Positions 3,133 to 54,974 of a DNA stretch of 64,000 nt are shown here, piece after piece; position 1 is the first letter of the stretch, and the number at the start of each line of letters is the position of its first letter. The DNA is from Tubulanus polymorphus (lineage: Eukaryota; Animalia; Nemertea): the NCBI RefSeq assembly GCF_964204645.1, contig NC_134026.1:14232150-14296149 (forward strand), given 5' to 3'. The position numbers and the translations under genes are program-made. The notes beneath the pieces are model-generated. The model worked only from the letters and a program-made list of their open reading frames with translations. It had not been told where the DNA came from and did no database searches.

Positions 3133-3762
3133 TCTGTAACAGCTGATACTCCAATATTATTAAAATACAATAATCAAATATTAATAAGAAGAATTTCAGA
3201 AATAATACCTTATCAAAATAAATTTCATATTTCATATGGTGAAAAAGAATTAATACAAATAAGTGGATTAATGGATGTTTGGACAAAAAATGGATGGAAA
3301 AATTAAAGAATATAATTAGACATAAAACAAATAAAAAGATGTATAGAGTTAGATCTAAATTAGGGTTTGTAGATGTTACTGAAGATCATAGTTTAATTAG
3401 AAAAAATGGTGATGAAATAAAACCAACTGATATAAAAATTGAGATGAATTATGACATAAAAGATTTTATCCAAGAATGAATCATATGTCATTTGACAAGA
3501 TAATTGATAATATTTATAACATAGAACCTGAAATCTTAGAAGAAAAAGAATATTTTATCAAAGGATTTTTTATGGGAGATGGTTCAGCAGGTGTGAATAA
3601 TTATGCTGGAGGCAATAAATATTGTTGGTATTTATGCAATCAAGATTTCAAATTATTAGAAAGAATTAAAAATTATTGTGAAGAAGTTTATTCACATAAA
3701 ACATTTAAAATCGTGGATCATATGAAATCAACAGCAGTTTATAGAATACTTGTAAATAATCC
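3133..3762 (+). mobile_element. Intein (pol-c site) with LAGLIDADG homing-endonuclease motif; frameshifted, C-terminal part lost
   Basis: Directly after YFD: block A SVTADTPILL, then VWTKNGWK-LKNIIRHKTNKKMYRV, block B VDVTEDHSL, block C FIKGFFMGDGSAG; two single-base frameshifts (~3300, ~3441) and a stop join the three ORFs. Confidence 0.88.
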
Positions 3763-3945
3763 AATTCTATATTCTTGCAATAGTGAAAAGTAATACTTCA
3801 ACAAAAGAACAAATCTTAAAAAACATCGATAGTTACATACTAAAAATACGTTATTTTCGAATCGATCGTATGGATTTATTGTTGAAATTTAGTTAAATCG
3901 ACGCCATACTTTACATGGCGATATAACGTGACCTTGCGCTAAGAG

Positions 3946-4895
3946 GTGACTCGTACTCGTGCTAACTCATACGTGTCAAACGGAGAACCGACAATGGGCA
4001 GACCAAAACGTAAACAAAGTCGTAACAGCTCTGGCTCTGCAAGTTCCAACGCATCCAATGAACCGGATCGAAAGAGACATTCAACCAGAAACCGCTCTCA
4101 TCAAGAACCAGTCTACGAAAATGAAAACGAAAACGCCGCATCCGACGATGTTTTTGAAACCCTGCCCTCCGACCGATCTCTACAGGACGAACTTCTGGAT
4201 GTTAAGATTTTAGAAGTTCTGAACAGCGATGTTGTCCGCAGTATTTTAGAACCGTTGGTCAACTCGGTACTGTCATCGTTTAGGAGAGAATTGACGATCA
4301 TTATGAACGATAAGATGGACAGATTGGATACTCTTATGTTTGATCTCGGGAAATCGCAGGACGATCTCAAAAGTCACATAGAGACAGCTGTCGAGAAAAT
4401 GAGTGATTCTCTAAATCTCATCAAACAACAAATTGTTGTCCTGGAAAAGAAATGTTCTGACAACCAGGCTCAAACTAGAGCTCGAAGCTTACCAAGAAGA
4501 ACTAGAAATGTATACAGGGCGTAATTCAGTGCGGATTTTTGAATTGGATATCTTAATTTCAGACAATCCAATCAGACAATCCAATCGATCGTGCGCATTG
4601 GATTGGTAAACCGCCTATCGATCCCCGATTACCACGACCACTCATCGTTAAATTTGTTAGACATCTGAACAAAGAACGCATTCTCAAACAAAGGCGTATT
4701 TTGAAAGGAACGAAAATCCGTATTTGCGAGGATCTCACCAAATGTAGAGCAGATTCTCTTAAGTTTCTATATAACCATGAAAGCGTGAGCGCGTGTTGGT
4801 CGTTTTACGGTCGGATTAATGCGATTTTAAATGGGAAAAAGTTCAACGTAAACGGTTACGCGGAATTCGACAGAATCCTGAAAAGTAAAAAATAA
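3946..4895 (+). mobile_element. LINE ORF1p-like (L1/Transposase_22-type) gene fragment, no ORF2
   Basis: Higher GC than flanks; coiled coil followed by IDRAHWIG...PRPLIVKF...LKGTKIRICEDLT...WSFYGRI. Confidence 0.7.
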
Positions 4896-5123
4896 CGAAT
4901 TCGTTGTGTTTCGAAAACCCGCGCGTGCCAAAATAAATGACTCGAGTATTAAAAGATTAAAAGGAAATAAATGTAAATTCAGAACTTATTTACTAGATAG
5001 ATTTCAAAGATTATCTAGTGAAGATATTGAAGATTTAAAATCTGGGATATTTTATTTCATATATAAAGGTTAGAATGAAAAAGGGCACCATGATATAGAT
5101 TTCGAATAAAATATGTAAAATAA

Positions 5124-26881: not shown

Positions 26882-27598
26882 TTACTGATCTAAATATAAC
26901 TGAAAATCTAGTTTGTCATGTTTAATCATATTTTCTATCTTTTCGAGTGGTCTTAGATTCTTCCAATTCCAAATTAACTTTTCATTACAATCATCATCCA
27001 AATTAAATTTAGATATTGGTAACACGTGATCAATATGAAAGTATTCACCATAATTATCTATTTTTATTTTATCATCAAATTGATAAACAATCCAGGATTT
27101 TAGAAATTCATCTGAACAGTCTAGCAAATTATATAGTGTTTCTGAGAGTTTCTCTTTGCTGAATAATTTTGATACTTTAGATCTTAAACAATTTTTCAAT
27201 TTGTAATTAAAATATGTTTTATATCTTTCATTTTGATAATTATTTTGATACGCTTTATAATATTCTCTATTATCATCCCTCCATTCTCTCATATATTCTG
27301 TCATATAGTCTGGATGATTTTCTCTCCATTGTTTATTATTAGCTTTGCATTTTTCTAGATTATTTGTTCGATATTGTTTACCCAATTCTTTACATTTTGC
27401 AGTGTTATTTGTTTGATATTGTTTATTATATAGTTTACGACAATTTTTGCAATAATAACTTTTACCATCTTTCTTATTTTTATCTTTATTAAATTCTGCT
27501 ACTGATTTATTTATTTTACACTTGGAACATTTCTTATAGTATATTTTTATAACCCCAGTATTATTGTTTATATTAATAGTTTGTGATTGTTCCTCCAT
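26882..27598 (-). CDS. Zinc-ribbon plus HNH endonuclease of the type common in large DNA viruses (stop at 26882 may be premature)
   Basis: KKCSKC...F.KD....DG...YCKNC, helical repeats, LDCS.EFLKSWI.YQF, DNYGEYFHIDHVLPIS.F, W.NLRPL...EN..K. Confidence 0.75.
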   Translation of the reverse strand: MEEQSQTININNNTGVIKIYYKKCSKCKINKSVAEFNKDKNKKDGKSYYCKNCRKLYNKQYQTNNTAKCKELGKQYRTNNLEKCKANNKQWRENHPDYMTEYMREWRDDNREYYKAYQNNYQNERYKTYFNYKLKNCLRSKVSKLFSKEKLSETLYNLLDCSDEFLKSWIVYQFDDKIKIDNYGEYFHIDHVLPISKFNLDDDCNEKLIWNWKNLRPLEKIENMIKHDKLDFQLYLDQ

Positions 27599-27681
27599 TG
27601 ATAATACATATTTTTATCAAAATTGATTAATATAATCTCATTCTCCTTTGTTTCTTCTCTTTTGAACTTTAAGTATTCATT

Positions 27682-35109: not shown

Positions 35110-38100
35110 ATATTGAAGAAAGATATTTTGAAGGTTCTGGCTTGTCACTGAATGAAATTATATTTCTAGATTTAAATATTTATAATATACCAAGAAATAA
35201 AACATTAAAAAGAAATGAAATGTTTACAAATGATTCAAACTTTACAACAGAGAAGGATATTGAAGCATCGTCTTATATTAAACTACCATTTACAACAAAG
35301 TCAGTTATAAACGTTCGAAATGAAATAAAGAATGTTTTCTATGGTCGATTATAAGTTGCTTACACACAACTGAGGAAAATGTTTGTAGAGTAACAGAGTA
35401 CCGGAAGTATGAATCATTATATAAAATTGATCAATACCCAGTTACTATGAAAATAATACCTAAAGATACAATACCTAAGATATAAAAAGTTGATAATTTG
35501 AAAATGAATGTATCGAAATTAATGTAACTACCAGAGAAAAAAGGTGAAAATATTAAAGATTATACATTAGAAGCTTTATATCTAACAAAACATTATGATG
35601 TTGATATGTTATAGATTTATTATACTTTAAAAAGATGAACATTATATGTGGTTAAAACAAATAGATTTATTCTTTAGAACAGAAAGTTATTTTAACTACC
35701 ATCTTAAAATTTATCTTTGTAGAAAATGTTTATCTGAATTTAGAAATGAAAATGCATTACTAAAACATAAAGAATTGTGTAATATTAAAGATTTTTGAAA
35801 ATTAATAATGCCAACAGAAAAAGATTATAAATTGAAGTTAGTTTACTAAAAATTAATTTAAAAATATAGTTCCATTTGAAATATGGAGATTTTGAATCGT
35901 TGAATAAAGAATTAACTGTCCAAGATAGAAAGAAATATACAGTGAAAAACAATTATTTAAATCAATGGATAAAGGAAATGAACTAAATGAAGACTTAATA
36001 CAAGACCCACCAAGTATAAATACAATTTAAAGGGTTCAGCAAAGAGCTGAATTAGCAACAGATTTTACAAAATTATTAATTAAAAATAAAAATAAAAACA
36101 ATTATGACCAAAGAAGATGAAGTTGATTTAAGTAATGCAACTCATTGTTGTTACTGTGAACGTTTTTATTCAGATGATGATCATTTAAATTTAACATAAC
36201 GTGGAGCTGCTGATGAAGATTGTAACCTACAAGCTAAGAAAGTTAACTTCGTACCAATATTATTTCATTATATTTCAAGCTATGATACCCATTTATTTAT
36301 AATACAATTATTAGAAAAATTAGGTGTCATCAATCAAGACATAGAAAAATATAATGCTATACATGATGCAAGTGTAAAAAATAAGATTCTAGACTATTAG
36401 CTAAGACATCTGAAAATAAAATTTTATTTCAATTTGTTTGCTTTTGACTTTTAGATTGTTATAGATTTTTAGCAAGTTCATTAGATAGTTTAGCTTAAAG
36501 TTTAGTTGACAATGATTTTATAATAACGCTATTTATTATCCAAATGAACAAGACTTTTAATTATTAAGATATAAAGGCGCAATACCTTACTCATTTTATA
36601 AAACGCAGGATGATTTCAAAGAAACAAAATTATTGAATGAACAATTTTATGATCAATTTAAAAATAAGTAGGTGAAAGATGAAATGTTTAATTAAACGTT
36701 GAATACATGGAATCATTTCTATTTTAATCATGGCGAATTAGTTGACTTATATTTGAAATCAGATGTTATGATATTGGCTGATATATTTGAAAAGTTTAGA
36801 ATTAATTCAAATCATTTAAATGTTGATCCTTACAGTTATTCAAGTTTAACTTGGCAATGTGGTTTAAATATACCAATGTAGAATTAGATTTATTGAAAGA
36901 ACCGGACATGGTATTATTGTTTGAAAAATCTATAAGAGGTGGAATTTGTGGTGTCATGGGTGATAGGTATTTTAAAGCAAATGATGAATATAAATCATTA
37001 TATATTGACGCCAATAATTTGTTTGGTTGGGCAATGATGCAACCTCAACCATATAAAAATATAATATTAACAGAAGTTGAAGATGATGATAAAACTGATT
37101 GGGAAGTTGCAATTAAGAGCTTAAAAGATGATGTACCAATTGGTAATTTCTTTGTAGTTGATTTAGAATATCCTGATAACATAATGTTTTAAACAAGAAA
37201 CTTACCTCATTGCCCGGAACATTTAGTCGTAGATGATAGTTATCTATGTGAAAATCAGAAAAAAATAAAACCGAAAGATTATGTCTTTACTGAAAAATTA
37301 ATACTTACTCAAAATAATAAATCCAATTATATTGTTCATTATATAATGTTAAATATAATAATATTGTTCATTTTTTGGATGTTAAAAATATTTCAAACAA
37401 GGAAAGATATTACAAAAGGTACATAGATATATTGAATTTAATCAATCGAGATAGTTAGAAAAATATATACATTTCAATAGTTAACAGAGAACCATATCTA
37501 AGACAGATTTTAAAAAAGATTTTTTTTTAAGTTAATAAGCAATAGTTTTTATGGTAAAACAGTAAAAAATTGTGAGAAAAAGAAATGATATTGAACTAGA
37601 AAATAATTCTGAACGATTGAGGCACCTAAAATCAAGTACTAGACACTTAGGAAATAAAAGATTTGAAGATTATTTAACAACAGTAATATTAAAAGGAACA
37701 TCAATGAAATTTAATTAACCAATTTTGATAGGTTCAACTCTTTATCAAGTATCAAAATTATTAATGTATGATTCTTATCATAATGTTCTTTGCCACTTTC
37801 GTGGGTAGAAACATGTTGAAATATTATACTTCGATTCTGTAACAGCAACAAGGAATTTTTATGGATGATGGCTCAGCAGGTGTGTATAAATATGTAAGCC
37901 GTAATAGATATTGTTGGTATTTATGCAATCAAGATTTGAAATTATTAGAAACAATTGAAAAATACTGTGAAGAAGTTAATTCGCATACAGTTTTTAAAAT
38001 CATAGATTAATTATATAGCAATGATGATGATAAAATTCCTGGTTACTAGGAGGAGATGAACTAGGAGGTGATATCTGTTGAGATAAGAAGTAAAATGTAT

Positions 38101-38160
38101 AGAACTAAAGATCATGAAGCTAAATAGTTAAAAGGAATCACAACGCACGTGGTTGACAAG
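35110..38160 (+). pseudogene. pPolB, copy C, with endonuclease VII-like insert and intein remnant
   Basis: YGDFES, ATHCCYC...DH...RGAA...CNL (~36138-36230), YIDANNLFGWAM, NSFYGK, ILYFD, then C-terminal KIPG...DELGG...RSKMY...KGI. Confidence 0.88.
37836..38010 (+). mobile_element. Internally deleted remnant of the same intein
   Basis: ILYFD|SVTA joined to GIFMDDGSAGV...YCWYLCNQDLKLLE.IEKYCEEV.SH..FKIID. Confidence 0.85.
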
Positions 38161-41100
38161 CATAACTTTATGGCTATTAATTATTTATAATTTTATGACA
38201 TTGTTTCATCAGGTTTAAATCATCATCAGCTGAATCACCATCTTCTAATTCTTCATCATCTAAAAGTTCTTTATTTTGTTGATTAGTAAATTCAATTATA
38301 TATTTATAAATTTCATTCATTCTTTATTTTCATCGGATTGTTTTTCTATAATTGTTTTAGGTCGTTCTATTCCATTATTTTTATTTAAATGCTCTATATT
38401 GCTCCACATTTCATCTCGCTCTTTTTGTCTCTTTTTATTTGTTATTTCATCAATTATTCATGGAATTATAATATCGATGTTTAAAAAATATAAAATTTTA
38501 TTTAAAAAGAATCCATAATAGATTGAATCTTTTATCTTCTTATCAATACAATAATTTAATATTTTAATAAATGTTTCTTTTATATTACCCATATCTTCTT
38601 TTGTTAATTAAGGGTTTTTATAATGATCGTTTAGTAATAAATATAAATACATTTTCTTTTCTTTTGTGTTACATGTTGATGGAATAATTGTTTTTATTTC
38701 ATATTTCTTTCTTAGTTAGTTCATCATTTTTATTTTCTATTATTTTCATTGTTTCAAGCCATTGCATATATTCTTGTCTTATTGTCTTCTATAGAAAAAT
38801 ATTTTAAAAATTTCATCTAGATATTTTAACTTTGGCTGAATAAGAAAATCACTTGTTTTTTCATCACCCCATAAATTTTTTTGATAGCCACATTCATTAC
38901 GAAATATCATAGAATCGTTTTGTCTTAAGTACTCGTAGATACATTGTGGGCATCTTTTTCATATCTTGGCAATAGATGTACATTAAGCTCTTGGCATTTA
39001 CTTACGTCATCTTTATGTTTTATTATGTGAGTTTGGATTACTTGTTGTATCAATCAATGTACAATATTTACAATAATATGTTTTTCTTACTAATTCATTA
39101 TATTGTTTTTCTAATTTTTGAAGTGTAACTTTATTGTTCGATAACGTTTTCTCATACTTTATTTTTTCTAATAAATTATTTTTTCTTTCATTAATTTCTT
39201 TTTCAAATTTATTGAAAATTTTATTTACATGTACTTCATTAAATTGACGATTCTCCCAATCATCTATACTTTTAGAACTAAATTTTATTCGAAAATGCTC
39301 GCAGAAATAATTTCTTATTTCATTCTTATCATAAAATAAAAAGGTCTTTTCCAAATAATTTCAAGTTCAACTTCAACAGAATTATTATCACGTTACTATC
39401 ACCATTAACCATTAGGTCATTAATTTTAGACTTCTCTTAATGTTTTATTACAATTTGGACAGTTTGTTAGGGTATTTATAATTTTGATCATGTTTTTTTC
39501 ATATGCCAAGGCATATTACTTGTTCTTTGTAGTTCACTACAAATTTCACATTGTATCTTCTCGTCCATTTATTTAGGAAAAATTTATCAAAATCATTTTC
39601 GAGGGGTTCGATGTATTTTTTTTAAAATAATAAATGGTAGATTTAAAAGAATATAGGATATATGTTGATTCTAGAAGACTTACAAATTATAAATCACATA
39701 ATTTATTAATGCAACTGGATTTAAAATTTAAAAATTAGTTATGTAACTCTTTCTGTGTCGGATAAAACTGCTGAACACAGAGCCTTTTTTAATCTTAAAC
39801 CTGGGTTATATAATCTAGATACATTATCACAAGAAATTAATAGCAAAGCCTTGCACAAATTAAGTAGTGATTCGGGTTTGGCAATTGATTTTTAAGCTCT
39901 TAAGTGATAGTTCCAATAGAATTAAGATAAGGTTAGCTCATGATGAAAGACATCAATTTTTAGTAAAAAACCTATAGCTAAACTATTAGTAATTACACCT
40001 GAAAAACTTTACTTAAATGTTGATGCTATGCCTAATTTAACACCTAACACACACTTTTATATATTTATTGTAATTTAATCGAATCTACAAAAACATTTGA
40101 AGCAACTAAATATATATTTTGTGATTCTAGTATATTAAATATATGACAATTAAAAACTATTAAACAATTCAGTACACAAATAAATTATAATTTAGCTAAG
40201 TGTGATTTTAAACCATGTATTCCATTTCCATCTATTTCATTTATAGGAGCAAATGTTATTTCAAATATAATATCTTCTTGAATTGCGTATTTATATAAAG
40301 GTGCATTATTATTTATAAATTCAAAGTCTAATGGAATTTTATATCTGCTTCCATAAATCTTTTTTATTGAATTATCTGTAGCATTAGTTATTATTGCATT
40401 ATTAGCTTCTGATCTTAATTTATCATGGTTTTCTGATTGGATGCCTTGAAATATCATATAATTTCTATTGTTTCTTTTGTTAACCATAAGTCTTTGTAAT
40501 GCATAAATAAATTATAATCATCTAATGAAAAAACTGTTTCTGGTCCAATCTTTAAAGTTAATTTTTTAATCAAATATCTCCCAACATTATCAACAACATA
40601 ATTATTATCATAGCCAGTTACTTTTATATCAGCTGATAAATAAATACTATTTGGAACATAAAAAGTATTTTGATTTAATCTCGGGATTCTTACATATAAA
40701 GTTTCATCAGGATTAATATTTGAGGGATTATGAGTAATTATATGATGATATCTTTCTTCTTTAATAGCATTAGATATTCTAGAATTCTTAGAAGGATTTA
40801 TATAACTCCCTCTCATTTATTTAACAAAAAAATTAATTATTTATTTTTGATCATATTCACTAACCCAAAAATAATAGCACTTACAACCGTTATTAAGAAT
40901 AGAATAATATGTTCCGCAGCAAAACTAATAATATTTCCAGCAGATTTTAATACAAAACCAACAATTGAAGCAATAATTCCAGGTAAAGCTGCATCAGATT
41001 GTTTAAATAGTTCCCATAGATATGTGCCTAATTTCTTTAAACCATCTTTAACTTTATCTTGTATAGAATTATTATTTGGTGGTTTATCCGGTTTGTAAGG

Positions 41101-42408: not shown

Positions 42409-42705
42409 CATAGTATAATAAAACAGCTGTTAGTAATTAGAAGATGGCGTTTTCATACCAGAGTACTCGAGTACTAGACACCACTCATCACCACAAGTAT
42501 TTTTTTTTCCTTACAAATTGGGGAGAATGAACACCAGCCAGAAAACAATAATGTTAATAAAAATCAATATTATTGCCAATATTGTAAAAAATACATCGAT
42601 AAATCTAATAAATCTCATCATGAAAAATCTGCAAATCATATAAAAAATGTAATAGATTTTGAAACTCCAGAAAATTCCAATGAAAGAAAAGAACGATTAG
42701 AAAAT

Positions 42706-43090
42706 ATGAATGTGGATGAAATAAAATGTGAAGTTTGTAATGAATTTATAACAAAAAGGAATTATAAAAGACATCTCGAATCACAAAAACACCATCAAAC
42801 TTTGAGTAATAATGTTTCAGGAAAAGATTTTTTTGATGATAAACCTCAAAAAGTAAAAAAACCAACTTCAAAAACTAAATCCATTTCAAATAAACCTTAC
42901 ATGGAAAATGTTAGAAATTATATTGATTCACTAGAAATAAAAGATACAATTGAAATTTTAGAAACATTACATAGTAAAATTGGTCCTGCGGCTATTATAT
43001 TTAGATTCTTTAAAGGAACAACAATAGAAGATTATAGTAAATTTAATGAAATAATAGAAAAAATACTAGATTTGATAACAGATGTTATCA
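42706..43090 (+). pseudogene. pPolB N-terminal zinc-finger remnant, cut by deletion
   Basis: Matches 357-735 up to ITDV, then jumps into the 3' end of the opposite-strand gene. Confidence 0.75.
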
Positions 43091-44405
43091 AATCAATATC
43101 ATCATACTCGAAATCACTATTGGCTTCTTCATTTTCATTTAATTGTTCTTGTATAATTTGTTTAGGTTCTTCCATTTCATTTTTCTCATTTAAATATATT
43201 TCTATCTTGTACCACATTTCATCTCGCTCTCTTTGTTTCTTTTTGTTCGTTAATTCATCAAATGGAATTATAATATCGATGTTTAAAAAATTTACAATCA
43301 TATTTAAAAAGAATTCATAATTTATTGAATCTGTTATTCTATTTTCCAAATGAAACATTAATATTTGTTTAAATATTTTTTTTTATATTTTCCATATCTT
43401 CTTCTGTTAATTTAGGTTTTTCATAATAATCGTTAAATAATAAATATAAATACATTTTCTTTTGTTTTGTGTTAAATGTTGACGGAATAATTGTTTTTAT
43501 AATATCTTTTTTAGTTATTTCACCATTTTTATTTTCTATTATTTTCATTTTTTCAAGCCATTGCATATATTCTGGTGTATGATCTTCTATAGAAAATATT
43601 TTAAGAATTTCATCTAGATAATCTAATTTTGGATCTATGAGAAAATTTCTAGTTTTTTCTTCACTCCATAAATTCTTTTGCCATCCACAATCAACACAAA
43701 ATAACACAGTACCTTCTTGTCTTAAGGATAACTACATTGTGGACATTTTCGTTTATAATTTATTGGTAATAGATCTTCATTAAGCTCTTAGTATTTTCTT
43801 ACGTTTTCTTTATGTTTTATTGTTCTATTATGTAGATTTGAATTACTTGTTGTAATAATCAATTTACAATATTTACAATAATATGTTTTTCTTGTCAATT
43901 CATTATATTGTTTTTCTAACTTTTCAACTGTTTCTTTATTATCTGGTAACGTTTTCTCATATTTTATTTTTTCTGATATATCATTTTTTCTTTCATTGAA
44001 TTCAGTTTCAAATTTATTAGAAATTTTATCTATATGTGCTTTACGAAATTGATGATTCTCCCAATCTTCTATATTTTCAGGGCTATATTTTATTCGACAA
44101 GGCTCGCAGAAATGATCTTTTATATTATCCTTATCATAGAATAAGAAAGGTCTTTTCCAAATAATTTCAGGTTCAACATCAACAGAATTACTATTACTTT
44201 CGTTACTATCAACATTAACCGTTGTGTTAGTAATTTTGCACTTCTCTGAATGTTTTTTAACATAATTTCTTGAGAATAATTTATTACATTTTGGACAGTT
44301 TAGTTTAGGGGGTTTATAATTTTCTTCATGTTTTTTCATATGTCGAGCCATATTACTTTTTCTTAGAAGTTCACCACAAATTTCTCATGGTATCTTCTCA
44401 TCCAT
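43090..44405 (-). pseudogene. Multi-zinc-finger protein gene(s), broken by stops
   Basis: Several CxxC...H...H/C motifs in ORFs 43788-44351 and 43369-43707; likely start TAAATG at 44405; homolog at ~38200-39568. Confidence 0.6.
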
Positions 44406-44473
44406 TTATTAAGGAAAAATTTTATTAAAATTAATTTTTAGTGATGAGCGGTAATTTTTTTATGTTATAGATA

Positions 44474-45145
44474 ATGGTAGAATTAAAAGAATACAGAATA
44501 TTTGTTGATTCTAGAAAACTTACAAATTATAAATCACATAATTTACTAGTTCAATTAGATAGAGAATTTAAGAATTGTGTTGATTTAAAATTAGTAAATA
44601 TAAGTTTATGTAACTCATTTTACAATATATCAGATAAAACTGATGAACATAGAACCCTTTTTATTTTTGATAATCTTGATAAAAAATGGTATCAACTTAT
44701 GCTTATACCAGGATTATATAATTTAGAAACATTAGTGCAAGAAATTAATAGAAAAGCTCGGAATGGATTAGGTAATGGTAATTCTAAATTTAATATTAAA
44801 TTAATAAAAAGTGAGATCTCTAATAAAATTAAAATAAAGTTTGATGATGAAATGATTAAATCTAATGTATTTATGATAAAAAGACATACTTTCATGGTAA
44901 AAAAACCTTTTGCTAAACTGTTAGGAATTACTCCAAATAATTTTATTGATGGAAACATACACGTTAACTCAAATATAATACCTTTTACACACTTTTATAT
45001 TTATAATTTAGCTGAATGTGATTTTAAACCTTGTATTCCACATTTCAATAATTTTAAATTAGAAATAAGAAATCATAATGGTTATTTAATTGATTTGAAT
45101 AATTTTCCTGTGATATATGCATTAGTTATAAGATGTAGAGAGTAA
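44474..45145 (+). CDS. Putative minor capsid (penton-like) protein, with in-frame internal deletion near 45003
   Basis: Motif pattern VDSR / NSFYNI / PGLYN / AKLLGI / IRNHNGYLIDLNNFPV..L; lacks the YCNL...LP segment present in copies A-C. Confidence 0.6.
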   Translation: MVELKEYRIFVDSRKLTNYKSHNLLVQLDREFKNCVDLKLVNISLCNSFYNISDKTDEHRTLFIFDNLDKKWYQLMLIPGLYNLETLVQEINRKARNGLGNGNSKFNIKLIKSEISNKIKIKFDDEMIKSNVFMIKRHTFMVKKPFAKLLGITPNNFIDGNIHVNSNIIPFTHFYIYNLAECDFKPCIPHFNNFKLEIRNHNGYLIDLNNFPVIYALVIRCRE

Positions 45146-45161
45146 TTTTTTCATTATATAA

Positions 45162-45485
45162 ATGAATATAACTGTTGGACCGAGTATATGTTTTGGATTT
45201 GATTTTAAACGTGAGAAAGAAATGAAATTTAACATTAATGATGTAATTATACATATCAAAAATATTGCATTTTCTAATGAAACAACATTTGAGTATGAAA
45301 CAACAAAAGATAAAGAAACTTTAAATGTAGAAAAGATTACTAATTTAATTAGAGAATCTTTAAGATTTTATGAATTAGATGAAGATTTTATCATCGATGA
45401 TATTAAAAAAATAATAATTGAAATATATACAAATGAAAATAGTAATGAAATAAATGTTGATTTGATCATAAATAAGTTAACTTAA
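45162..45485 (+). CDS. Polinton hypothetical protein
   Basis: Homologs at ~5905-6245 and 18317-18665; TAAATG start. Confidence 0.6.
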   Translation: MNITVGPSICFGFDFKREKEMKFNINDVIIHIKNIAFSNETTFEYETTKDKETLNVEKITNLIRESLRFYELDEDFIIDDIKKIIIEIYTNENSNEINVDLIINKLT

Positions 45486-45519
45486 TATTTTGAAGATAGT
45501 ATTTTTTTTTGATTAATAA

Positions 45520-45741
45520 ATGAGTGATAATAAGTGGATAATAACTGGATTATATAATGGAGCATTACTATCAGTTGGAACTGTTGGTTATTCAATGGTA
45601 TTAAAAAAGGTATTCAAAATGGGAAGTGTTAATGTTGATAGATTTGATATCAATGATATTTTAAAATTAACATTAGCAGTTACTTTATCTAATTTAACTA
45701 TTGATTATTTAGAAAAACAAAAATATATTCCTCCCATATAA
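45520..45741 (+). CDS. Small hydrophobic (two-helix) protein
   Basis: Near-identical open copies at 6242 and 18666. Confidence 0.75.
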   Translation: MSDNKWIITGLYNGALLSVGTVGYSMVLKKVFKMGSVNVDRFDINDILKLTLAVTLSNLTIDYLEKQKYIPPI

Positions 45742-45765
45742 ATACATAATTTTTTTGTTAAATAA

Positions 45766-46188
45766 ATGGCTTCTGCAATTATAACTATTATAGGATCGGC
45801 AATTGTTAACGCTTTAGCATTTACTGGTGGTGGATATTTATTTAAGCATATTGATAAAAATGGATCATTAACAGAACAAAAAAGACATAACTTAGCATTA
45901 GAGAAATATAATAAAGCAGCAGAAGAATATAGAGAAAAAAGACAAAACTATATGGATTATATTAACAAGGAATTATATGATCAGAAGATTTCACATAGAG
46001 ATTTTCAATCAGTTGATGATGCAATGAGTTTATATAACGCGGTAACCAATAAAGAAAAATTACATCTATACAAACCTAATTTATCAGATTATTATACCCC
46101 AAGTAAAGAACAACAGAAATATGAAATAATTTGGATTTTAGGCGGAACAGTTATTGTTATATTTGTAGCATATAAATTTACTAATTAG
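45766..46188 (+). CDS. Protein with N-terminal hydrophobic segment, coiled coil and C-terminal TM
   Basis: Intact 140 aa; homologs at 6484 and 18900. Confidence 0.75.
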   Translation: MASAIITIIGSAIVNALAFTGGGYLFKHIDKNGSLTEQKRHNLALEKYNKAAEEYREKRQNYMDYINKELYDQKISHRDFQSVDDAMSLYNAVTNKEKLHLYKPNLSDYYTPSKEQQKYEIIWILGGTVIVIFVAYKFTN

Positions 46189-46208
46189 TAATTTATTTTT
46201 CTAAATAA

Positions 46209-46634
46209 ATGGAAGATAATATTGATATTATTCCTCATGATATAAATAAAACTAAATTAAAAATATATTTAGAAAAACAAATATCAGAATTTGAAAGTGA
46301 TTTAAAAGTTAAAAAGAAAAAATATTTAAAAAGTAAAATTATATATTATTTGATTATAAGTGGTTCGGTTACAATTAGTTCTGTAATAACATTTCTAGCA
46401 ATATTCAGTCCATTAACACCTTTAGCTATATCAATTGGTGTGTTAGGATTATGTTCAAGTGTTTTAACTGGTATAAGTTCAAAATTAAATATAAAAAGTA
46501 ATAAAGAAAAAATTAAAACTAATATAAAAGAAATTAATAGATTAAAGAATACACTAGATTATGTAATGAGTTTAAATGGTCATATAACAGTTGAAGAACA
46601 AGATAAATTATTAAAAGAATTAGTTAATTATTAA
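46209..46634 (+). CDS. Two-TM protein flanked by coiled coils
   Basis: Intact 141 aa; homologs at 6925 and ~19307. Confidence 0.75.
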   Translation: MEDNIDIIPHDINKTKLKIYLEKQISEFESDLKVKKKKYLKSKIIYYLIISGSVTISSVITFLAIFSPLTPLAISIGVLGLCSSVLTGISSKLNIKSNKEKIKTNIKEINRLKNTLDYVMSLNGHITVEEQDKLLKELVNY

Positions 46635-46650
46635 TTTTTTTATTATATAA

Positions 46651-47907
46651 ATGGGGTTTCCAAAAGCTTTCCAATATAATAAATCACATGAATATTATAA
46701 ATATAATACTCCAGCAATAGATTTTAGTAACATGATAATATATAAAAATTTAGTTTTACCTTCATTGATTAATTTAGAAATTTATGTTACTGAAACAAAC
46801 TATTTTATTTCTAAAATGGAAAATATATTTAATACATATGAAGTTACTTTTACTCGAGATGAATATAATATATATAAAGTAAAATCTAATATGAAATATT
46901 GGCAGAATCAATTAAATTTTGCTGTTCATTGTGCAACAGCTGGTTGTGGTGTAAGTTGGCATGATCACTTGAATAACTTAGATAAAAATTTGAAATATTC
47001 TGATTTAAAATTCATTCATACAATATTTAGATTTCATGTATACTTTCAAATTAGAATTATATTAAATGAATTAGAATGCCCTATACCTGGATCAAAATAT
47101 TTTAAAGAATTGGATAATAATATTAATCTATCTAAGTTTTATAAAATATGTAATGAATTTAATATAAATATTAATTTCGATTTTAGAGCGCATGGTAAAT
47201 TGCAAGGTGTTGGTGAAGAGTATGAAATAAAAAGAATTGATTATATGCATAGAATTTCAGCTTATCATAATTATAAAATTGATAATAATAATGGTTGGGT
47301 TTATTTTATTGAATCTTATAGTGAAGGATTTACAAAACCTGGAATACAAAGAATAAATCAATCAATTAGAACTTATTTGATATGTATTTTAGGTGCGCAA
47401 GTTGAAACAAGATCACCAATAGTTGGAAATAATAGTACTTCATTTGATGCGCAGAAACAATTTAAAGTATTATTTGAAGATTCCATTCATAATGATAAAA
47501 AGAGATCGATTCCAGAAAACATTGTAAGATATCAAAATTATTTAGATAAATCTCATGTAAGACTAAATTATTGTATAGGCCCTAATCTATTAATTATTTC
47601 TAATGATTTAGTATTAAAGATGGGAAATATAATTGGTTATAATAATCTAATTAAAACTGCAACAATAAATAATTCAATTGGATTAAATGATATAAATAAA
47701 AAGATTATTACTGCTCCAAAATTAATGGAAGGTGAAAAAAATAAAAAACACATTCAATCAACAGAAACTAAAACTAAGAATATTAAATTGGATAATGATT
47801 CCAAAATAAAAGATTACAATACTACAGAAATACTACATGAAAATACTAAATTAGCTTTAACTTGTATAGGAATTGTTATAGGAGCAATATTATATTTTAA
47901 ATTTTGA
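46651..47907 (+). CDS. 418-aa conserved unknown protein with C-terminal TM anchor
   Basis: Intact ORF; homologs at ~7370-8600 and 19755-21075. Confidence 0.8.
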   Translation: MGFPKAFQYNKSHEYYKYNTPAIDFSNMIIYKNLVLPSLINLEIYVTETNYFISKMENIFNTYEVTFTRDEYNIYKVKSNMKYWQNQLNFAVHCATAGCGVSWHDHLNNLDKNLKYSDLKFIHTIFRFHVYFQIRIILNELECPIPGSKYFKELDNNINLSKFYKICNEFNININFDFRAHGKLQGVGEEYEIKRIDYMHRISAYHNYKIDNNNGWVYFIESYSEGFTKPGIQRINQSIRTYLICILGAQVETRSPIVGNNSTSFDAQKQFKVLFEDSIHNDKKRSIPENIVRYQNYLDKSHVRLNYCIGPNLLIISNDLVLKMGNIIGYNNLIKTATINNSIGLNDINKKIITAPKLMEGEKNKKHIQSTETKTKNIKLDNDSKIKDYNTTEILHENTKLALTCIGIVIGAILYFKF

Positions 47908-47922
47908 TTTTTTATTATATAA

Positions 47923-49383
47923 ATGGGTGTAGAATGTGGAGAAGATATTGGAATAGATAATTTTGATGAACCTGGCATAACTGATGAACAACAACCTGAT
48001 TTTAGTGAAAAAAGTTTTAATGACGGTAATAAGCCAGGATATAATAATAATTTAAATATGCCTGATTATATTAAAAATGCAGAATCACAATTAAATCCTG
48101 AAAATTTAGACCCAGATTTAGTAAAACAAGATTTAGATAATTTAAACAAAATACCTAAATTAGAAGATTTAATTGAAAAATCTAAACTTAACATAAATGA
48201 TGAAGACGTTGGACTTTTAGCAGATCAATTAAAATTTTTATATAATGGTAAATGTTATTATCGTTTGAAAGGTGATTATTATATTGATATCACTTATAAA
48301 AATAATAAAAATAAAATATTATCAGAATCAACTTAAGAAAAATTAAAACCAGATAGAATTAAAATAATAAGTAATAGTAATGAAATAACTGATGTTACAC
48401 AAAAAGAAAAAGATGATAATATAGACGTATTTAAACAAAGAATTAATGAGTTATTTGACAAAATCAAAAAGAAATCAGAAACAGAAACAACTTCTGAACA
48501 GAATAAAACTTCCAAAACTAGTAAACTTAAATCAAATAAAGTTCCAATTGAAAAACTTTTACCGAATGGATTAATTGATGCAACAGATCAACAATTCGAA
48601 GATTTAAATAATATATTTTCTGTTGAAGCAAATAGAGAAATTAAAAGTATAAGACTTGCATCTGATAAAATTGAGCATGATAAAAGTATAAGAGATTTAA
48701 AAATTAGAACTTTAGAAGATGAATTTTTTAAATCAAGAAAATGATCGGAACAACTAAAATTAGATAGAGATAATAAAGTTATTGAAGAAATCGAATTTAA
48801 AAAAAGAAATGCGTATTTAGAAAAAGAAAAAGATGATTTAGAATATAACATAGAATTACAAAAAGAAGAAATTAAATTATTGTTAAAATCATATGATTAT
48901 AATATAAATAGATTAAAAGTTATTTTTAAAGATTTGTTGATAAAACCAAATTCTGAAATATCATTGAAAGATAGAATAAAATTATTATTTAAATTAGAAG
49001 GAATAACAATTCTTTCAATTCTAACAGCTGTAACTATGTTATTTACAACAATTTGTTTAGCTATATCAAATGCTTTGAAATCTACTCCTACTCCCAATAA
49101 ACCAGATAAACCCCCAGATAATAATTCTATACAAGATAAAGTTAAAGATGGTTTAAAGAAATTAGCAAAATATTTATGGGAACTATCAAAGAAATCTGCT
49201 GCAGCATTACCAGGAATTATTGCATCAATTGTTGGTTTTATATTGAAATCTGCAGGAAACATTATTAACTTTGCTGCTGAGCATATTATTTTATTTTTAA
49301 TTACAGTTGTAAGTGCTATTATTTTTGGGTTAGTGAATATGATATCAAAAAGATATCAAGAACAAAATAATAAAAATAAATAA
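47923..49383 (+). pseudogene. Acidic/coiled-coil protein with C-terminal hydrophobic helices; two in-frame stops
   Basis: ORFs 47923-48336 and 48880-49383 are in the same frame; homologs at 21076-22775 and 40837-41810 (-). Confidence 0.7.
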
Positions 49384-49403
49384 TTAATTTTTTTATTAAA
49401 TAA

Positions 49404-50651
49404 ATGAGTGGGAGTTATATAAGTCCTTCTAAGATTTCTAGAATATCTAATGCTATTAAAGCAGAAAGATCACATCATATAATTACACATAATCCTTCAA
49501 ATATTAATCCCGATGAAACTTTATATGTTAGAATTCCTAGATTAACACAAAATACTTTTTATGTTCCAAATAGTATTTATTTATCAGCTGATATAAAAGT
49601 AACTGGTCATGATAATAATTATGTTGTTGATAATGTTGGGAGATATTTGATTAAAAAATTAACAATAAAGATTGGGTCTAGAAACAGTTTTCTCATTAGA
49701 TGATTATAATTTATTTATGCATTATAAAGATTTATGGTTAACTAAAGAAAATAGAAATAATATGATATTTCAGGGTATTCAATCGGAAAACCATAATAAA
49801 TTAAGATCAGGAGCTAATGACGCAATAGTAACTCGTGCCACAGATAATTTGATTAAAAAGTTTTGTGGAAGCAAATATAAAATTCCATTAGACTTTGAAT
49901 TGATAAATAATAATGCACCTTTATATAAATACGCAATTCAAGAAGATATTATATTTGAGATAACATTGATCCTGTAAATGAAATTGTATTATCTAGCGTT
50001 GTTAAAGATATGGGTTATAAATTATCAAATATATGTTTAGAATATAACACAGTAACTAATGAAAATATTGCTAGCACAATTCAAACTCAATACAATCAAG
50101 GATTTTCATTATTATATGATTATATTGATAAATTTAAAACTGTAACTATTAATGCAAATGTTGAAATAATTAATGAGAATATTAACTTCCCAAGAAGATC
50201 TATTAAAGGTATATTAATATTTTTTACCATTGCAACATATTCTAATGGTGCAATAAAGGTAGATATTTATTATAATCCTGAAATAACAAAAGTAGAAATA
50301 ACTATCGAAGGAATAGCAAATAAAATATTTTGTCAAGGAATGAGAATGATAGATCAGTGGCCAGAAATTAGAAAACATTTTTTGAATGAAAAAGTAAAAT
50401 CATTTGAAAATTGTAATATTAATCAAATTGATTATTATACCGGCAATAAATACGCATTATGGTTAGATTTTAGAACAACAGAGGATAATTCATTACATGG
50501 TTCTGGGAAAAAACTACAAAATACAAAAGATGAAATACAATTATTCATGAAAAAGAAAAAAGGAAGCTTAAATTTTAAAATGCCCATTTATATTATATCT
50601 GACGCGCAATTAAATATTGTAAATTCACAATTAGATAGTATTCAATATTAG
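49404..50651 (+). pseudogene. Putative major capsid protein (double jelly-roll), two frameshifts
   Basis: Three ORFs join to ~415 aa, beta-rich, conserved in three copies, next to integrase and ATPase; the fold is inferred. Confidence 0.6.
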
Positions 50652-50681
50652 AAATATAAAGTTAAAATTAAGGATATATAA

Positions 50682-51805
50682 ATGGGTGGTAAAAAAACTC
50701 CTAATACTAAAGAACAATATTTAAGAAATTTATATTACAACCCTGAGAGTTCGGTTGCTTATTCTTCTACCAAAAATATATGGCGTCAAGTAAAACAAGA
50801 TAAATTAGATAAGACAATCCCACAAAATTTAGTTAAATATAAAGATATAAATGAATTTATGTTAGAACAACCAACATACACAACACATAAAAAAATTGTT
50901 AGAAAATATAAAACTCGTAAAACTATGGTAAGTTATGTAGATCAACAGTGGCAAGGAGATTTAATTGATATGAAAAATGTTAAGAAAGATAATGATGATT
51001 ATTGGTGGTTATTGAATATAATTGATATTTTTAGTTGTTATGTATGGAGTTTCCCACTTTATAGAAAAGATGCTGTACAAACATCAAATGTTTTAAGAAA
51101 ATTTCTTTCGGATGATAAACTAAAACCAGAAAAAATACAATTTGATGATGGAAAAGAGTTTGATAATTCACTTGTTCATGAACTCTTAGACAATCATAAT
51201 ATTAAATATTTTTCAACAAAATCGGATAAAAAAGCGGAAGTTGTTGAACGATTTAATAGAACATTAAGAACAAGAATGTGGAAATATTTTACAGCAAATA
51301 ATACTTTTAAATGGATTGATGTTTTACCAAAATTGATAGAAGGATATAATAATTCTTATCATTCTTCTATTGGAATGAAACCTATTGATGCTAGAAAACC
51401 TGAAAATGCTGAAATTGGAATAATTTATATGGAGCATTTGTTATAGATGATTTTGGTGAACCTAAATTTAAAGTTGGTCAAAATGTTAGAATTTCTAAGT
51501 ATAAAAAGATATTTGACAAAGGATACGATCGAAATTTTACTAGGGAAATATATAAAATAAAAAAGGTAATAACAACAAAACCATATGTCTATAAATTAGA
51601 AGATTTAGATGGTGAAGAAGTTGATGGCTACTTTTACGAAGAAGAATTAAGTTTAACTACTGAAAATCTAGAACAAGAATATAAAATTGAAAAAGTATTA
51701 AAAACAAAAACTATTAAAAGAAAAAAATATTCTTTAGTAAAATGGGTTGGATGGCCAGATAAATTCAATGAATGGATATTGTCAAGTAAAATTAAAAATA
51801 TATAA
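50682..51805 (+). pseudogene. rve integrase with chromodomain; frameshift near 51415
   Basis: QWQGDLIDM, IIDIFS, IQFDDGKEF, VVERFNRTLR, YNNSYHSSIGMKP, then YKIEKVL...LVKWVGWPDKFNEWI. Confidence 0.92.
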
Positions 51806-52411
51806 ATGAATAAGGAATTATTTATATTTGAGCCTCATAATATGTTAATTTCTGGTGTAACAAATTGTGGAAAAACTTATTTTATATTAAATTTATTAGA
51901 AACTGTTTATGAAAACTATTTTGATAATATAGTATTTTTTTGTCCAACATATGAATTTAATCAAACTTATGATAGAAATATTACTAGAAATAATAAATTT
52001 ATTATATTTGATCCTAAAACAGTAAAAGAAAATTTAGATAATTGTATTAAAATAGCAATAGATATTTATAAAGGATCAAATACATTATTCATTATAGATG
52101 ATTGTGCTAATCTACATGATTCAAAAATTACAGAAAGTGAGTTATGCTATTTAGCTTTTTCTGGCAGACATTTTGGGATAACAACTTGGGTTTTAAATCA
52201 AAAATATAATTCAATTGTTAAAGACTTTAGAGAAAACATTAGATTTCTAGTTTTATTCTACAATAAAGATAGAAAATGGATAAAAAATGCACTTGAGGAA
52301 AATGATATTATTCCACATGATTTACATAATGAATATATGGATAAATTGAAAAATATTAAAAGATGAAAATTACTATTTAGATTACAACACCCATTTAAAT
52401 ATGAATTTATT
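51806..52411 (+). CDS. A32-like (FtsK/HerA) packaging ATPase; stop at 52366 probably premature
   Basis: Walker A GVTNCGKT, Walker B FIIDD, GRH...Q...R.N motifs. Confidence 0.9.
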
Positions 52412-52416
52412 TAAAT

Positions 52417-52690
52417 TCAACTAGCTTGTTGATCTAGTTGAATTCTAGTAACATTCTAGTTGAATTCTAGTTATTAGTAGTTGAAACAAAAATAAAATAA
52501 AATTCAACAATATTTTAACTAGCTTGTTAATCTAGTATATTTTTAGTTACATTCTAGTTGAATTCTAGTTATTAGTAGTTGAAACAAAAATCAACTAAAT
52601 TTAACAAGAAATAAATAAAAACAACAATATTTCAACTAGCTCGTTAATCTAGTTGAATTCTAGTTACATTCTAGTTGAATTCTAGTTGCA
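52417..52690. repeat. Internal tandem array, three ~100-115-bp units with five CTAGTTGAATTCTAG cores
   Basis: Direct read. Confidence 0.85.
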
Positions 52691-52719
52691 ACAACACAAC
52701 GATTTTTTTTGTTATATAA

Positions 52720-53325
52720 ATGGTAGGTGAAAAGAAAGTAAAATCTAAAAATGGTGATGTTCCAATTGAAAAAACTTAAGATGATTTAGGAATGACAGAA
52801 AACAAATTAATTCCAGATGATGGTGCTTTAAATAATGTTACAACAAATAATAATTATGAATATTATCTTTATTGTAAACATCAATTAGAAATATTAATAG
52901 CATCTGGAAAATGTAAAAATTTTGTCGGTAAAAATTTAACTTATAATGAATTAGATACAATGAAATCAGATGAAATTATTAGATTATTTAGGATTTATGA
53001 AGCCGCGAGAACAGCTAGAATTAATGACGCGATATCAGAAAATGTAGTAAAAGGTTATAGTAAATTATGTAATTATATACTACCAATTGAAGATGAAAAT
53101 AGATTATATTCCGATTTAAAAAATGATTATTTAGTTATGACTGAATTAAATAAATGGATTGGATATTTATCATTTCAATTAGGTGGATTTATGACATTAT
53201 TATCAACTGGGGTTATAACATTTTCAAATATTGAAAGTAAAAATATTTCTATAATAAATGAGCGAGGTGGAAGAAGTGAAGGAATTAACTGTGAAGAAAA
53301 AACCGAGTTCACAGAAACAAATTGA
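52720..53325 (+). CDS. Polinton hypothetical protein (TAAATG start at 52720, early stop; open from 52792)
   Basis: 177-aa ORF; homologous fragment at 30950-31100 (-). Confidence 0.6.
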
Positions 53326-53545
53326 ATGGTCTCGGCAATTAGGAATTAAATCACAAGAATATAAAAAAGCTGTAAAAGAAAAAATAAGTAATAAAAACGT
53401 TAATGAAAATAGTGAAAATATTGTTATTTCTACTCCTTCTAATAATAGAATATTTGATAAATGTCTATATTTTACAGTTGGATTTGTAATTGTATTCATT
53501 TTGATTGGGTGTAATTGGTATAAGAAATTAAAAAAAAATTCATGA
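53258..53545 (+). CDS. Small basic protein with C-terminal TM
   Basis: Homologs at ~30650-30915 (-) and 63667-63950. Confidence 0.65.
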   Translation: MSEVEEVKELTVKKKPSSQKQIEWSRQLGIKSQEYKKAVKEKISNKNVNENSENIVISTPSNNRIFDKCLYFTVGFVIVFILIGCNWYKKLKKNS

Positions 53546-53777
53546 TATTAATAATTCTGAAACAACTGCTATCAAAAATGAAAATACTTCTGAAATTCCA
53601 AAATTTATAATAAAAAAATGGATTAATATTTTAGAAAAAAAAGCAAAAAAAATAATTTTTTTAATTAATTGAATATCTCACTACTTTTGTCTATCTATGC
53701 GGAGCAATTAAATTGCCCAGATAAGTCATTTCGGATTCTTAATATTCATTATTTTTATTAATTTATTTTTTTTAATT

Positions 53778-54104
53778 TAATCAACAATTTCTAAATTATG
53801 ATGGCCATCTTCATTTTTTCCATGATAGATTATTTTAAATCCTTCTAAATCTTTTAATTCCTCTGTACTCAATGAAGTCCATTTATCAGGTAAAATACTT
53901 AAAATTCTCGCGATGTACTAACATTACAGTAGCTTAAATTCGCTGATACTTTCTCTCCATATTTAGTTTTTATCTTTTCTAATTTCAATATTTTATGTTC
54001 AATTTCTTTTGTAACATCAACTAACTTTTTTATTTCAAATATGTTTTTTTTGCTGGTTTAATTCTGTTATTTATTGTTGCTAAGAATGCTTTTCTATCTC
54101 CCAT
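53778..54104 (-). pseudogene. Small TIR-adjacent gene, diverged relative of the 17190-17550 / 58768-59067 ORF
   Basis: Minus strand KIKTKYGEKV...LPDKWTSLSTEELKDLEGFKIIYHGKNEDGHHNLEI versus LPDRFHRLS..DIEELCSGDF...YKGKNE.GHH.IDFE. Confidence 0.6.
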
Positions 54105-54974
54105 TTATTAGGAAAAGAAATTACTTGTGGTGATGAGTGGTGTCTAGTACTCAAGTACTCTGGTATGAAAACGCCATCTTCTAATTACTGCTGTTGTTGT
54201 TACCATTAACAACGACCGAACATCGAAAGTAATAGACACTGCAATTCGGGCAAAATATCATACATTGAAAATTTATTCAGCATGACAAAACAGCTACAGT
54301 CAAATTAGATGTAACACTCATAATTTCTGATTCTGCATCGTCACTTTCTTGTGATAAACTTCTTGTTACCTAAAAGAGAAATATATCTAGAGCGTAGAAT
54401 AGAATTAACTTGGAGTTGTAGTTGGCAAATATAAATTGCTGCACATATTTAAAGGTTTCTAATTAAGTAACCCCTTTCCCGATTTCTTAATAACTACAAA
54501 AACGGTACTTACATTTAGAACTGTAAACTCCGAATTGTATTACAAGAGAGAAATATATGTGTCCTGTTTATATACGTGCTTATATCTAACTGCTTCAATG
54601 AAACATTGAACGGCTACATCTGTTTGATCAATCAATATTCAAATTAATTACTTCAATACAACTAAATGGAGTGAGCGCGCAACATAGGTTTTGAGACAAG
54701 CAATTTTCATATAGATCGGGCGTCGCAGTTTTTGTACGACATGCTTATTGTAAAGAATGGAACTTACTAATAAATTGCAAAAAAACTAAAGTAATTCTCG
54801 AAGGGAAGACTACGAAACCCCCCGGAGTTTAATATAAACGGTCGAGTGTTGGAGTTAGTATATAACTATAAGTATTTGGGTATACTATTCCCCATACCGG
54901 GTCTTTTGTTCAGTGCCGAAAAGCGTTAGCAAACCAAGCGCGGCGGGCTATGTTCTCTGTTTTAAAAAAGGTTA

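Follow-up and report, generated by a model that had tools for sequence, protein, structure and literature searches.

Introduction

Pol-c inteins of the Mimivirus R322 type, carried by family B DNA polymerases of giant viruses and archaea, sit at YxD|TDS, start with Ser, end with Asn and are followed by Thr at position +1, and they also have a block-B Thr/His, a LAGLIDADG endonuclease and a length of ~350 amino acids; precursor splicing and endonuclease homing chemistry are described for this allele (PMC549080, in its accessible text). These features are shared by the insertion described here. Unlike in the giant-virus and archaeal hosts, however, the extein is protein-primed and shows no significant likeness to theirs (best E 0.003–0.07), and the intein lies within an integrating element in a chromosome.

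Eukaryotic inteins have been placed in fungi, protists, algal plastids and giant viruses in the accessible portions of PMC5874633 and PMC5784728, one of which states that inteins are absent from multicellular organisms, while viral inteins are given in PMC5784728 for giant-virus families and unclassified viruses. Intein-bearing viral-type DNA polymerases are also described, in the available text of PMC10710043, on nuclear scaffolds of Klebsormidium, Tetrabaena and Hondaea. These, too, are inteins that an endogenous virus polymerase has carried into a eukaryotic chromosome, but they concern giant-virus-type genes in algae and a protist, whereas the Polinton family studied here has many copies and its host is likely an animal.

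Polintons or Mavericks (Polintoviricetes) have a protein-primed DNA polymerase B (pPolB), an rve integrase, an A32-like ATPase, a capsid-like gene, terminal inverted repeats and a 6-bp target duplication, all of which recur in the element studied here; the difference is that its pPolB contains an intein. HNH and VSR endonuclease inserts have been described in Polinton pPolB2 (Jeong et al., 10.1101/2023.08.22.554363), and HNH-type inserts in polinton pPolBs have been suggested to stem from intein invasions (Krupovic et al., PMC11071308), both as far as the accessible text of these papers goes. Those inserts likewise place a nuclease domain in a Polinton polymerase, but the one described here includes a splicing domain and interrupts the catalytic motif. 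None of the words intein, Hint or LAGLIDADG is used in the main text of 10.1101/2023.08.22.554363, and no intein appears in the accessible main text of 10.64898/2026.10.13.758929 or PMC11131425. In the literature covered, including the accessible parts of PMC12220804, PMC5718144, PMC3671162, PMC2777158 and PMC13768754, no Hint and LAGLIDADG intein is described in a Polinton polymerase; one might be mentioned in supplements, in the PMC5784728 and PMC10710043 intein tables, in Repbase or in subscription papers. Polinton pPolB is a new host class for the pol-c allele, whose known hosts are archaea and giant viruses.

Here we describe two decayed polymerase genes, copies A and C, in a stretch of 64,000 nucleotides (the window, meaning the whole stretch of DNA that was analysed). 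Copy C is best explained, with a probability that we put at about 0.8, as the relic of a Polinton polymerase in which motif C was split by a Hint and LAGLIDADG intein; when intact, this intein is predicted to have been self-splicing and likely homed into empty alleles.

Polinton copies in the window

The DNA of the window is of eukaryote type, rich in A and T, and its frames are short and broken. A single Polinton family is represented between positions 76 and 53800 by five or more partial copies, 68–89% alike and in both orientations, which are cut by LINE-like and Helitron-like pieces (a LINE reverse transcriptase among them) in what amounts to an element graveyard. Element B retains both inverted repeats (95 bases at 93%), a 6-bp target duplication at 42426–42431 and 54190–54195, and genes that are mostly open; beyond its N-terminus the polymerase is deleted, and element B may have transposed non-autonomously. 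The ends of the element to which copy C belonged were not found within the window. The coordinates of all features are collected in Table 1.

Table 1. Features of the intein-bearing polymerase copies and of element B, in window positions
Feature	Position	Strand	Basis
Copy A, N-extein, decayed pPolB, ends ILYFD (3118–3132)	540–3132	+	DNA_pol_B_2 E 1e-3; tblastn of P0003 and P0173
Copy A, intein with block A, block B (3375–3389) and first LAGLIDADG (3554–3583)	3133–3812	+	P0173 1184–1419; LAGLIDADG_3 E 0.008
Copy A, intein C-terminal dipeptide KN (3819–3824) and C-extein codons 1–8	3813–3848	+	Match to P0003
Copy C, N-extein, decayed protein-primed DNA polymerase B, ends ILYFD (37821–37835)	35110–37835	+	tblastn of P0003 and P0173
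Copy C, intein codons 1–4 (SVTA), then deletion 1	37836–37847	+	Alignment to copy A
Copy C, retained first LAGLIDADG block, homing endonuclease of intein	37849–38007	+	84% to 3561–3718; P0173 1328–1385
Copy C, polymerase C-terminal sequence after deletion 2	38008–38172	+	P0003 1197 onward, E 5e-12
Element B, same family; terminal inverted repeats start AG (42432), end CT (54189)	42426–54195	+	85% to copy A 82–733
Element B, candidate major capsid gene (double jelly roll), two frames	49407–50648	+	Atlas features 0.96–0.97
Element B, retroviral-type integrase	50685–51802	+	Pfam rve E 1.4e-9
Element B, packaging ATPase	51809–52363	+	Pfam Pox_A32 E 3.7e-12

Judged by sequence, the pPolB, integrase, ATPase, capsid-like protein, terminal inverted repeats and 6-bp target duplication identify the element as a Polinton, and the features of element B match those listed in the accessible text of Jeong et al. 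(10.1101/2023.08.22.554363) and Krupovic et al. (PMC11071308). The protein-primed polymerase domain DNA_pol_B_2 is matched at E 1e-3 by the window fragment and at E 5e-17 by the intact relative P0173. For the capsid candidate, the Atlas clusters carry DJR-like_dom or Capsid_NCLDV on 10–16% of their members, which is of low recognition value; two capsid-like clusters have mollusc and arthropod labels with few members, and a single-sequence fold gave a pLDDT of 31. Together with the LINE reverse transcriptase and the Helitron pieces, these labels make it likely that the host is an animal. The region 44474–45142 of element B, with a weak match to DUF5901 (E 0.03), may be the minor capsid gene. 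A further apparent difference from described Polintons is that no motif or family match to the maturation cysteine protease was found in the window, where all copies are deleted, and searches of PHROGs and of PDB sequences returned nothing for most of the element's open reading frames.

Two polymerase relics with an intein at the same codon

An earlier note on this DNA had described ILYFD|SVTA at copy C as joined by a deletion to the LAGLIDADG block and by a second deletion to the C-terminus of the polymerase, and we see exactly this arrangement at 37821–38172. Motifs YIDANNL (37001–37021) and NSFYGK (37541–37558) are present in the N-extein. The DNA aligns to copy A as far as A:3143 with 80% identity (947/1183 columns) and resumes at A:3561 for 158 ungapped bases with 84% identity (132/158), deletion 1 having removed ~417 intein bases relative to copy A and left a frameshift. 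The retained block is the counterpart of residues 1328–1385 in the intact intein-bearing P0173 (E 2e-11). Deletion 2 is in frame and joins this block to C-terminal polymerase sequence at 38011–38172 (P0003 from residue 1197, E 5e-12; P0173 from residue 1572), with a loss of ~185 codons, among them the C-terminal end of the intein and the latter half of motif C. Both deletion junctions are read from the window sequence. Having lost block B, half of motif C and the C-terminal junction, copy C is dead: two deletions have left a relic of the Polinton polymerase gene in which neither splicing nor homing is possible now. At deletion 2 (38002–38010; compare 3713–3721), Asp-His stands at both of the joined places, in the intein of copy A and in the C-extein of P0003, which hints at a microhomology-mediated deletion.

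More of the intein survives in copy A, where it spans 3133–3824 overall, with the N-terminal junction reading YFD|SVTADTP at 3124–3153. Its match to P0173 runs through four frames at 47–80% identity, it matches the intein profile with E-values of 1e-20 and 2e-13, and block B reads VTEDH at 3375–3389 (TEDH at 3378–3389). It is broken by two frameshifts and stops, followed by a deletion of ~115 codons. The eight codons that follow the terminal KN encode seven residues identical to the first eight of the P0003 C-extein, with the first C-extein codon altered; this is the sole match of at least 6/8 in the window, and 60 shuffled windows contained no 7/8 matches. Both splice junctions are therefore present in the window, in copy A. 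The N-terminal Ser of the intein is found in both copies, while block-B TEDH and the terminal KN are kept in A and deleted in C. Just past the C-terminal junction, copy A is interrupted at 3900–4950 by a GC-richer insert with no Pfam match, presumably LINE ORF1-like. Base composition does not set the intein apart as foreign (GC 0.238 versus 0.239).

By tblastn of P0003, no polymerase in the window other than copies A and C extends to motif C, and, as the earlier note had it, both carry the insert, at the same codon after YFD, and differ at many sites (80–84% identity, with different flanks and different deletions).

Intact relatives carry a complete intein

Relatives were gathered with an intein-biased query. 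P0001, a fragment with 79% identity, gave 2232 phmmer matches, and among the best 150, which we classified, were 107 P0003-like pPolBs (7 filled, 75 empty and 25 without coverage of the site), 39 Pol-delta-like polymerases (36 of them filled) and four unassigned. A profile built from nine filled fragments found 1743 longer matches, the best 120 of which comprised 24 filled P0003-like pPolBs, P0179, 93 Pol-delta-like polymerases and two unassigned.

Database searches showed that intact pPolBs contain a full Hint and LAGLIDADG intein of 333–354 amino acids at the pol-c site. P0157, P0173, P0179 and P0191 are full-length open frames with inteins of 337–354 amino acids, and all four match Intein_splicing and LAGLIDADG_3 (E <1e-4), with DNA_pol_B_2 on three. 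P0173 is the closest to copy A (47–80% across the intein), and the empty relative P0003 reads YFD|TDS at the pol-c site. Ser1, TEDH, both acidic residues of LAGLIDADG and the terminal Asn are kept in 5/5 aligned pPolB inteins, and among proteins with the C-terminal motif of the clade the terminal Asn is present in 56/56 and the +1 Thr in 55/56. From these residues and its position exactly at YxD|TDS of polB motif C, the insertion is assigned to the class 1 inteins as a pol-c allele, and the intact form is predicted to splice itself out of the polymerase.

The predicted model of relative P0174 (pLDDT 90.5) has homing-endonuclease inteins as its best matches (E 6e-20), namely TliVMA, PhoVMA, PI-PfuI and PI-SceI, together with I-DmoI. 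The model indicates a Hint fold with an inserted LAGLIDADG domain, an assignment that applies to P0174 and not to the broken copies.

In viral contigs, a search for related loci found nothing with the window junction or with P0173, and the N-junction pattern of the intein occurred in none. In metagenomes, the same pattern gave nine matches: a pPolB with an intein (L007), a cellular-type polB with an intein (L001) and seven chance matches. A word search with the LAGLIDADG fragment found no longer protein, and a profile search against PDB sequences brought no gain, as its matches were dominated by exteins.

Age of the insertion and copy number

The comparison of intein and extein divergence that the earlier note had proposed gave the same dS for both parts. 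Between copies A and C, the extein has a dS of 0.279, a dN of 0.093 and a dN/dS of 0.33 (95% interval 0.22–0.51; 284 codons, seven stop codons skipped), and the N-terminal half of the polymerase again gives 0.33 (289 codons). The shared intein block also has a dS of 0.279, with a dN/dS of 0.60 (95% interval 0.30–1.22; 52 codons) that is indistinguishable from 1. Copies A and C split while the polymerase was under purifying selection, and since intein and extein share the same dS, the intein is as old as this split and was inherited through a replicating family. The equal dS also argues against recent homing between these two copies, and the evidence for homing lies in other lineages.

We also examined genomic reads of run X5 (~12% of it read), which bears a related species label only and may not be from the species of the window. 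Positions 2900–3900 received 2021 reads, of which 1874 were <95% alike (most 80–95%) and only 20 at 99%. Depth was 211–241 on 2900–3001, 515–588 on 3036–3137 and ~215–270 on the intein to 3681, with 139 and 64 reads leaving the alignment at 3132 and 3136, the insertion codon, and 96 entering at 3037. The intein is thus covered to the same depth as the polymerase upstream (~210–270), which means that many copies carry it. We read this as one subfamily that is nearly all filled and a second that matches only near motif C without the intein, filled copies making up ~40% at the site. A depth of 6.5 at 3818–3851 was considered as single-copy depth, giving ~35–40 filled copies, and was dropped as too uncertain. 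The view of the earlier note that the intein was present in an active, multiplying family is borne out by the extein dN/dS, the equal dS, the read depth and the existence of intact filled polymerases.

Filled and empty alleles

Filled and empty alleles occur in the same 90% clusters: among 15 listed of the 136 members of the P0157 cluster, seven are filled, five are empty and three lack coverage of the site. Four of the empty members are 95–99% identical to P0157 in the N-extein and 89–92% in the C-extein, and P0157 and empty P0282 are identical from -178 to -8, with differences bunched at -7 to -2 and +3 to +44. Bunching of this kind would be left by homing with flank conversion, by the survival of cleavage-resistant empty alleles, or by plain recombination. 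In the P0175 cluster, empty P0293 and filled P0295 are identical near the site. The empty members P0278 and P0279–P0283 of the P0157 cluster show three motif-C flanks, YFD|TDA, YGD|TDA and YTD|CDS, and filled alleles are uniform; the variant flanks possibly represent escape from the endonuclease. For the window family, the idea of a co-conversion tract ahead of the site was rejected, as identity just before motif C is equally high between empty relatives (25/32 in both).

An extein tree was built from 41 exteins, leaving out P0144, in which no site was found, and the unalignable P0179. The filled label needs seven changes on this tree, at least six of them forced by strong branches. Copies A and C are sisters (support 99), with empty P0003 as the next relative (99), and the intein and extein trees broadly match for the P0003-like polymerases, which together with the equal dS points to descent rather than homing in this family. 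In other lineages, the filled and empty alleles, the patchy distribution of the intein and its sharing between polymerase classes suggest that it may well spread by homing into empty alleles.

Relationship to giant-virus inteins

A quick tree of splicing domains, made from 110 of 132 extracted inteins after removal of near-copies and with copy A added, places the pPolB inteins in one group of 15 rows (support 96), including P0347, which was unlabelled beforehand, within a 26-row group (99) that also holds 11 Pol-delta-like rows. In a likewise quick whole-intein tree of 36 rows, the pPolB group has a support of 100 and its join with the giant-virus inteins 91, the 11 giant-virus sister rows forming a clade of their own. 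The C-terminal motif of the clade occurs in 19 viral contigs, all 19 Pol-delta-like and 17 of them named giant-virus MAGs, and full-length inteins of giant-virus MAGs are 35–42% identical to that of P0173. The sister row P0215, identical to L015, has an intein 38.5% identical to that of P0173 and an unalignable extein (best E 0.07), and for P0179 against P0173 the inteins are 45% identical with a best extein E of 0.011. Since like inteins sit in unalignable polymerases, they have crossed between such polymerases at least twice. As the outer rows are Pol-delta-like, we infer a direction from giant viruses, which are the likely source of this intein clade.

Mechanism and alternative explanations

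In our preferred reading, of a Polinton polymerase with an intein in motif C, the polymerase would be made as a precursor with the intein, and chemistry involving Ser1, the block-B His, the terminal Asn and the +1 Thr would rejoin YxD to TDS and restore the metal-binding motif. With the catalytic motif interrupted by the insert, no filled element could have replicated unless splicing took place in the host cells, splicing itself being deduced from the residues conserved in relatives. The LAGLIDADG endonuclease would cut the empty motif-C DNA, and repair would copy the intein in, so that homing could take place between co-replicating or integrated Polinton copies. A single transfer from a giant-virus PolB, while a giant virus co-infected the cell, would have brought the clade into Polintons. 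That no part of polB is more conserved than motif C would have favoured this step, and loss and regain and at least one jump to a second pPolB class would have come later.

A pol-c intein in Polinton pPolB spans the gap between RNA-primed and protein-primed polB and serves as a marker that giant viruses and Polintons have been in contact. Genomes with many copies, some of them filled and others empty, also make the homing cycle directly measurable. We advance more tentatively, at somewhat less than even odds, the bolder proposal that an intein of giant-virus origin settled in the polymerases of Polintons and persists in animal chromosomes as a homing element, which converts empty copies and has passed between the two polymerase classes, the empty alleles with changed flanks being escape variants. 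If this proposal were true, animal nuclear DNA would be home to a genuine intein family, and the intein would directly testify that a giant virus and a Polinton had exchanged DNA in one cell.

The alternative that survives best accepts a real intein that was only inherited and lost, with one old gain, vertical descent and repeated precise loss or recombination with empty relatives, and no homing since. It agrees with the equal dS in A and C and with intein tree groups that equal the extein groups for P0003-like polymerases, and the flank differences in the P0157 cluster could be ordinary recombination between subfamilies; however, both catalytic acidic residues of LAGLIDADG are kept across inteins that are only 44–47% identical, the same clade occurs in the unalignable P0179 polymerase, and filled and empty alleles with identical flanks exist (P0293/P0295), so that we consider it unlikely. 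Entry or spread of the intein among already dead copies, with the endonuclease acting in trans and splicing never needed in the family, is very unlikely: although A and C are both pseudogenes, filled copies seem to occur beside empty ones in run X5 and the interval of the intein dN/dS includes 1, the equality of intein and extein dS makes the insert as old as an A/C split that took place under polymerase selection, and relatives have open full-length filled frames. A reversed direction, in which the clade arose in Polintons and passed to one giant-virus group, draws on the whole-intein tree, where the pPolB inteins and the 11 giant-virus sister rows are each one clade and neither is nested, but all outer rows are inteins of RNA-primed-type PolB and 75 of the 82 site-covering P0003-like matches among the best 150 of 2232 are empty, which makes it highly improbable. 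The remaining alternative, the objection that the earlier note had itself raised, takes the two loci for a recent segmental duplication, or for an assembly artefact of a single accidental insertion; it is suggested by their nearness (35 kb) only and can be practically dismissed given a divergence of 16–20% with synonymous excess, distinct deletions and flanks, and run X5 reads that are mostly 80–95% alike, i.e. from many other copies.

Other polymerases with inteins or nuclease domains

Several further polymerases came to light in these searches. The cellular-type polB at L001:5001, on a metagenome contig, has a long pol-c intein after YSD, and P0028, a fragment of 140 amino acids, is a further intein-bearing polymerase with a different extein, placed in neither of the classes tested. 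P0179 is a pPolB of another, unalignable class with an intein of the same clade; a motif in it resembles, we assume, the VSR insert of mollusc-type pPolB2, and Pfam gave no VSR match. In the N-terminal half of four P0003-like pPolBs (P0157, P0191, P0290 and P0005) there is a match to Endonuclease_7 (His-Me finger). In the window itself, an open frame of 242 amino acids at 26885–27610 on the minus strand is endonuclease VII-like (PHROGs E 1e-16), adjoins a Polinton copy and is possibly a free-standing HNH gene.
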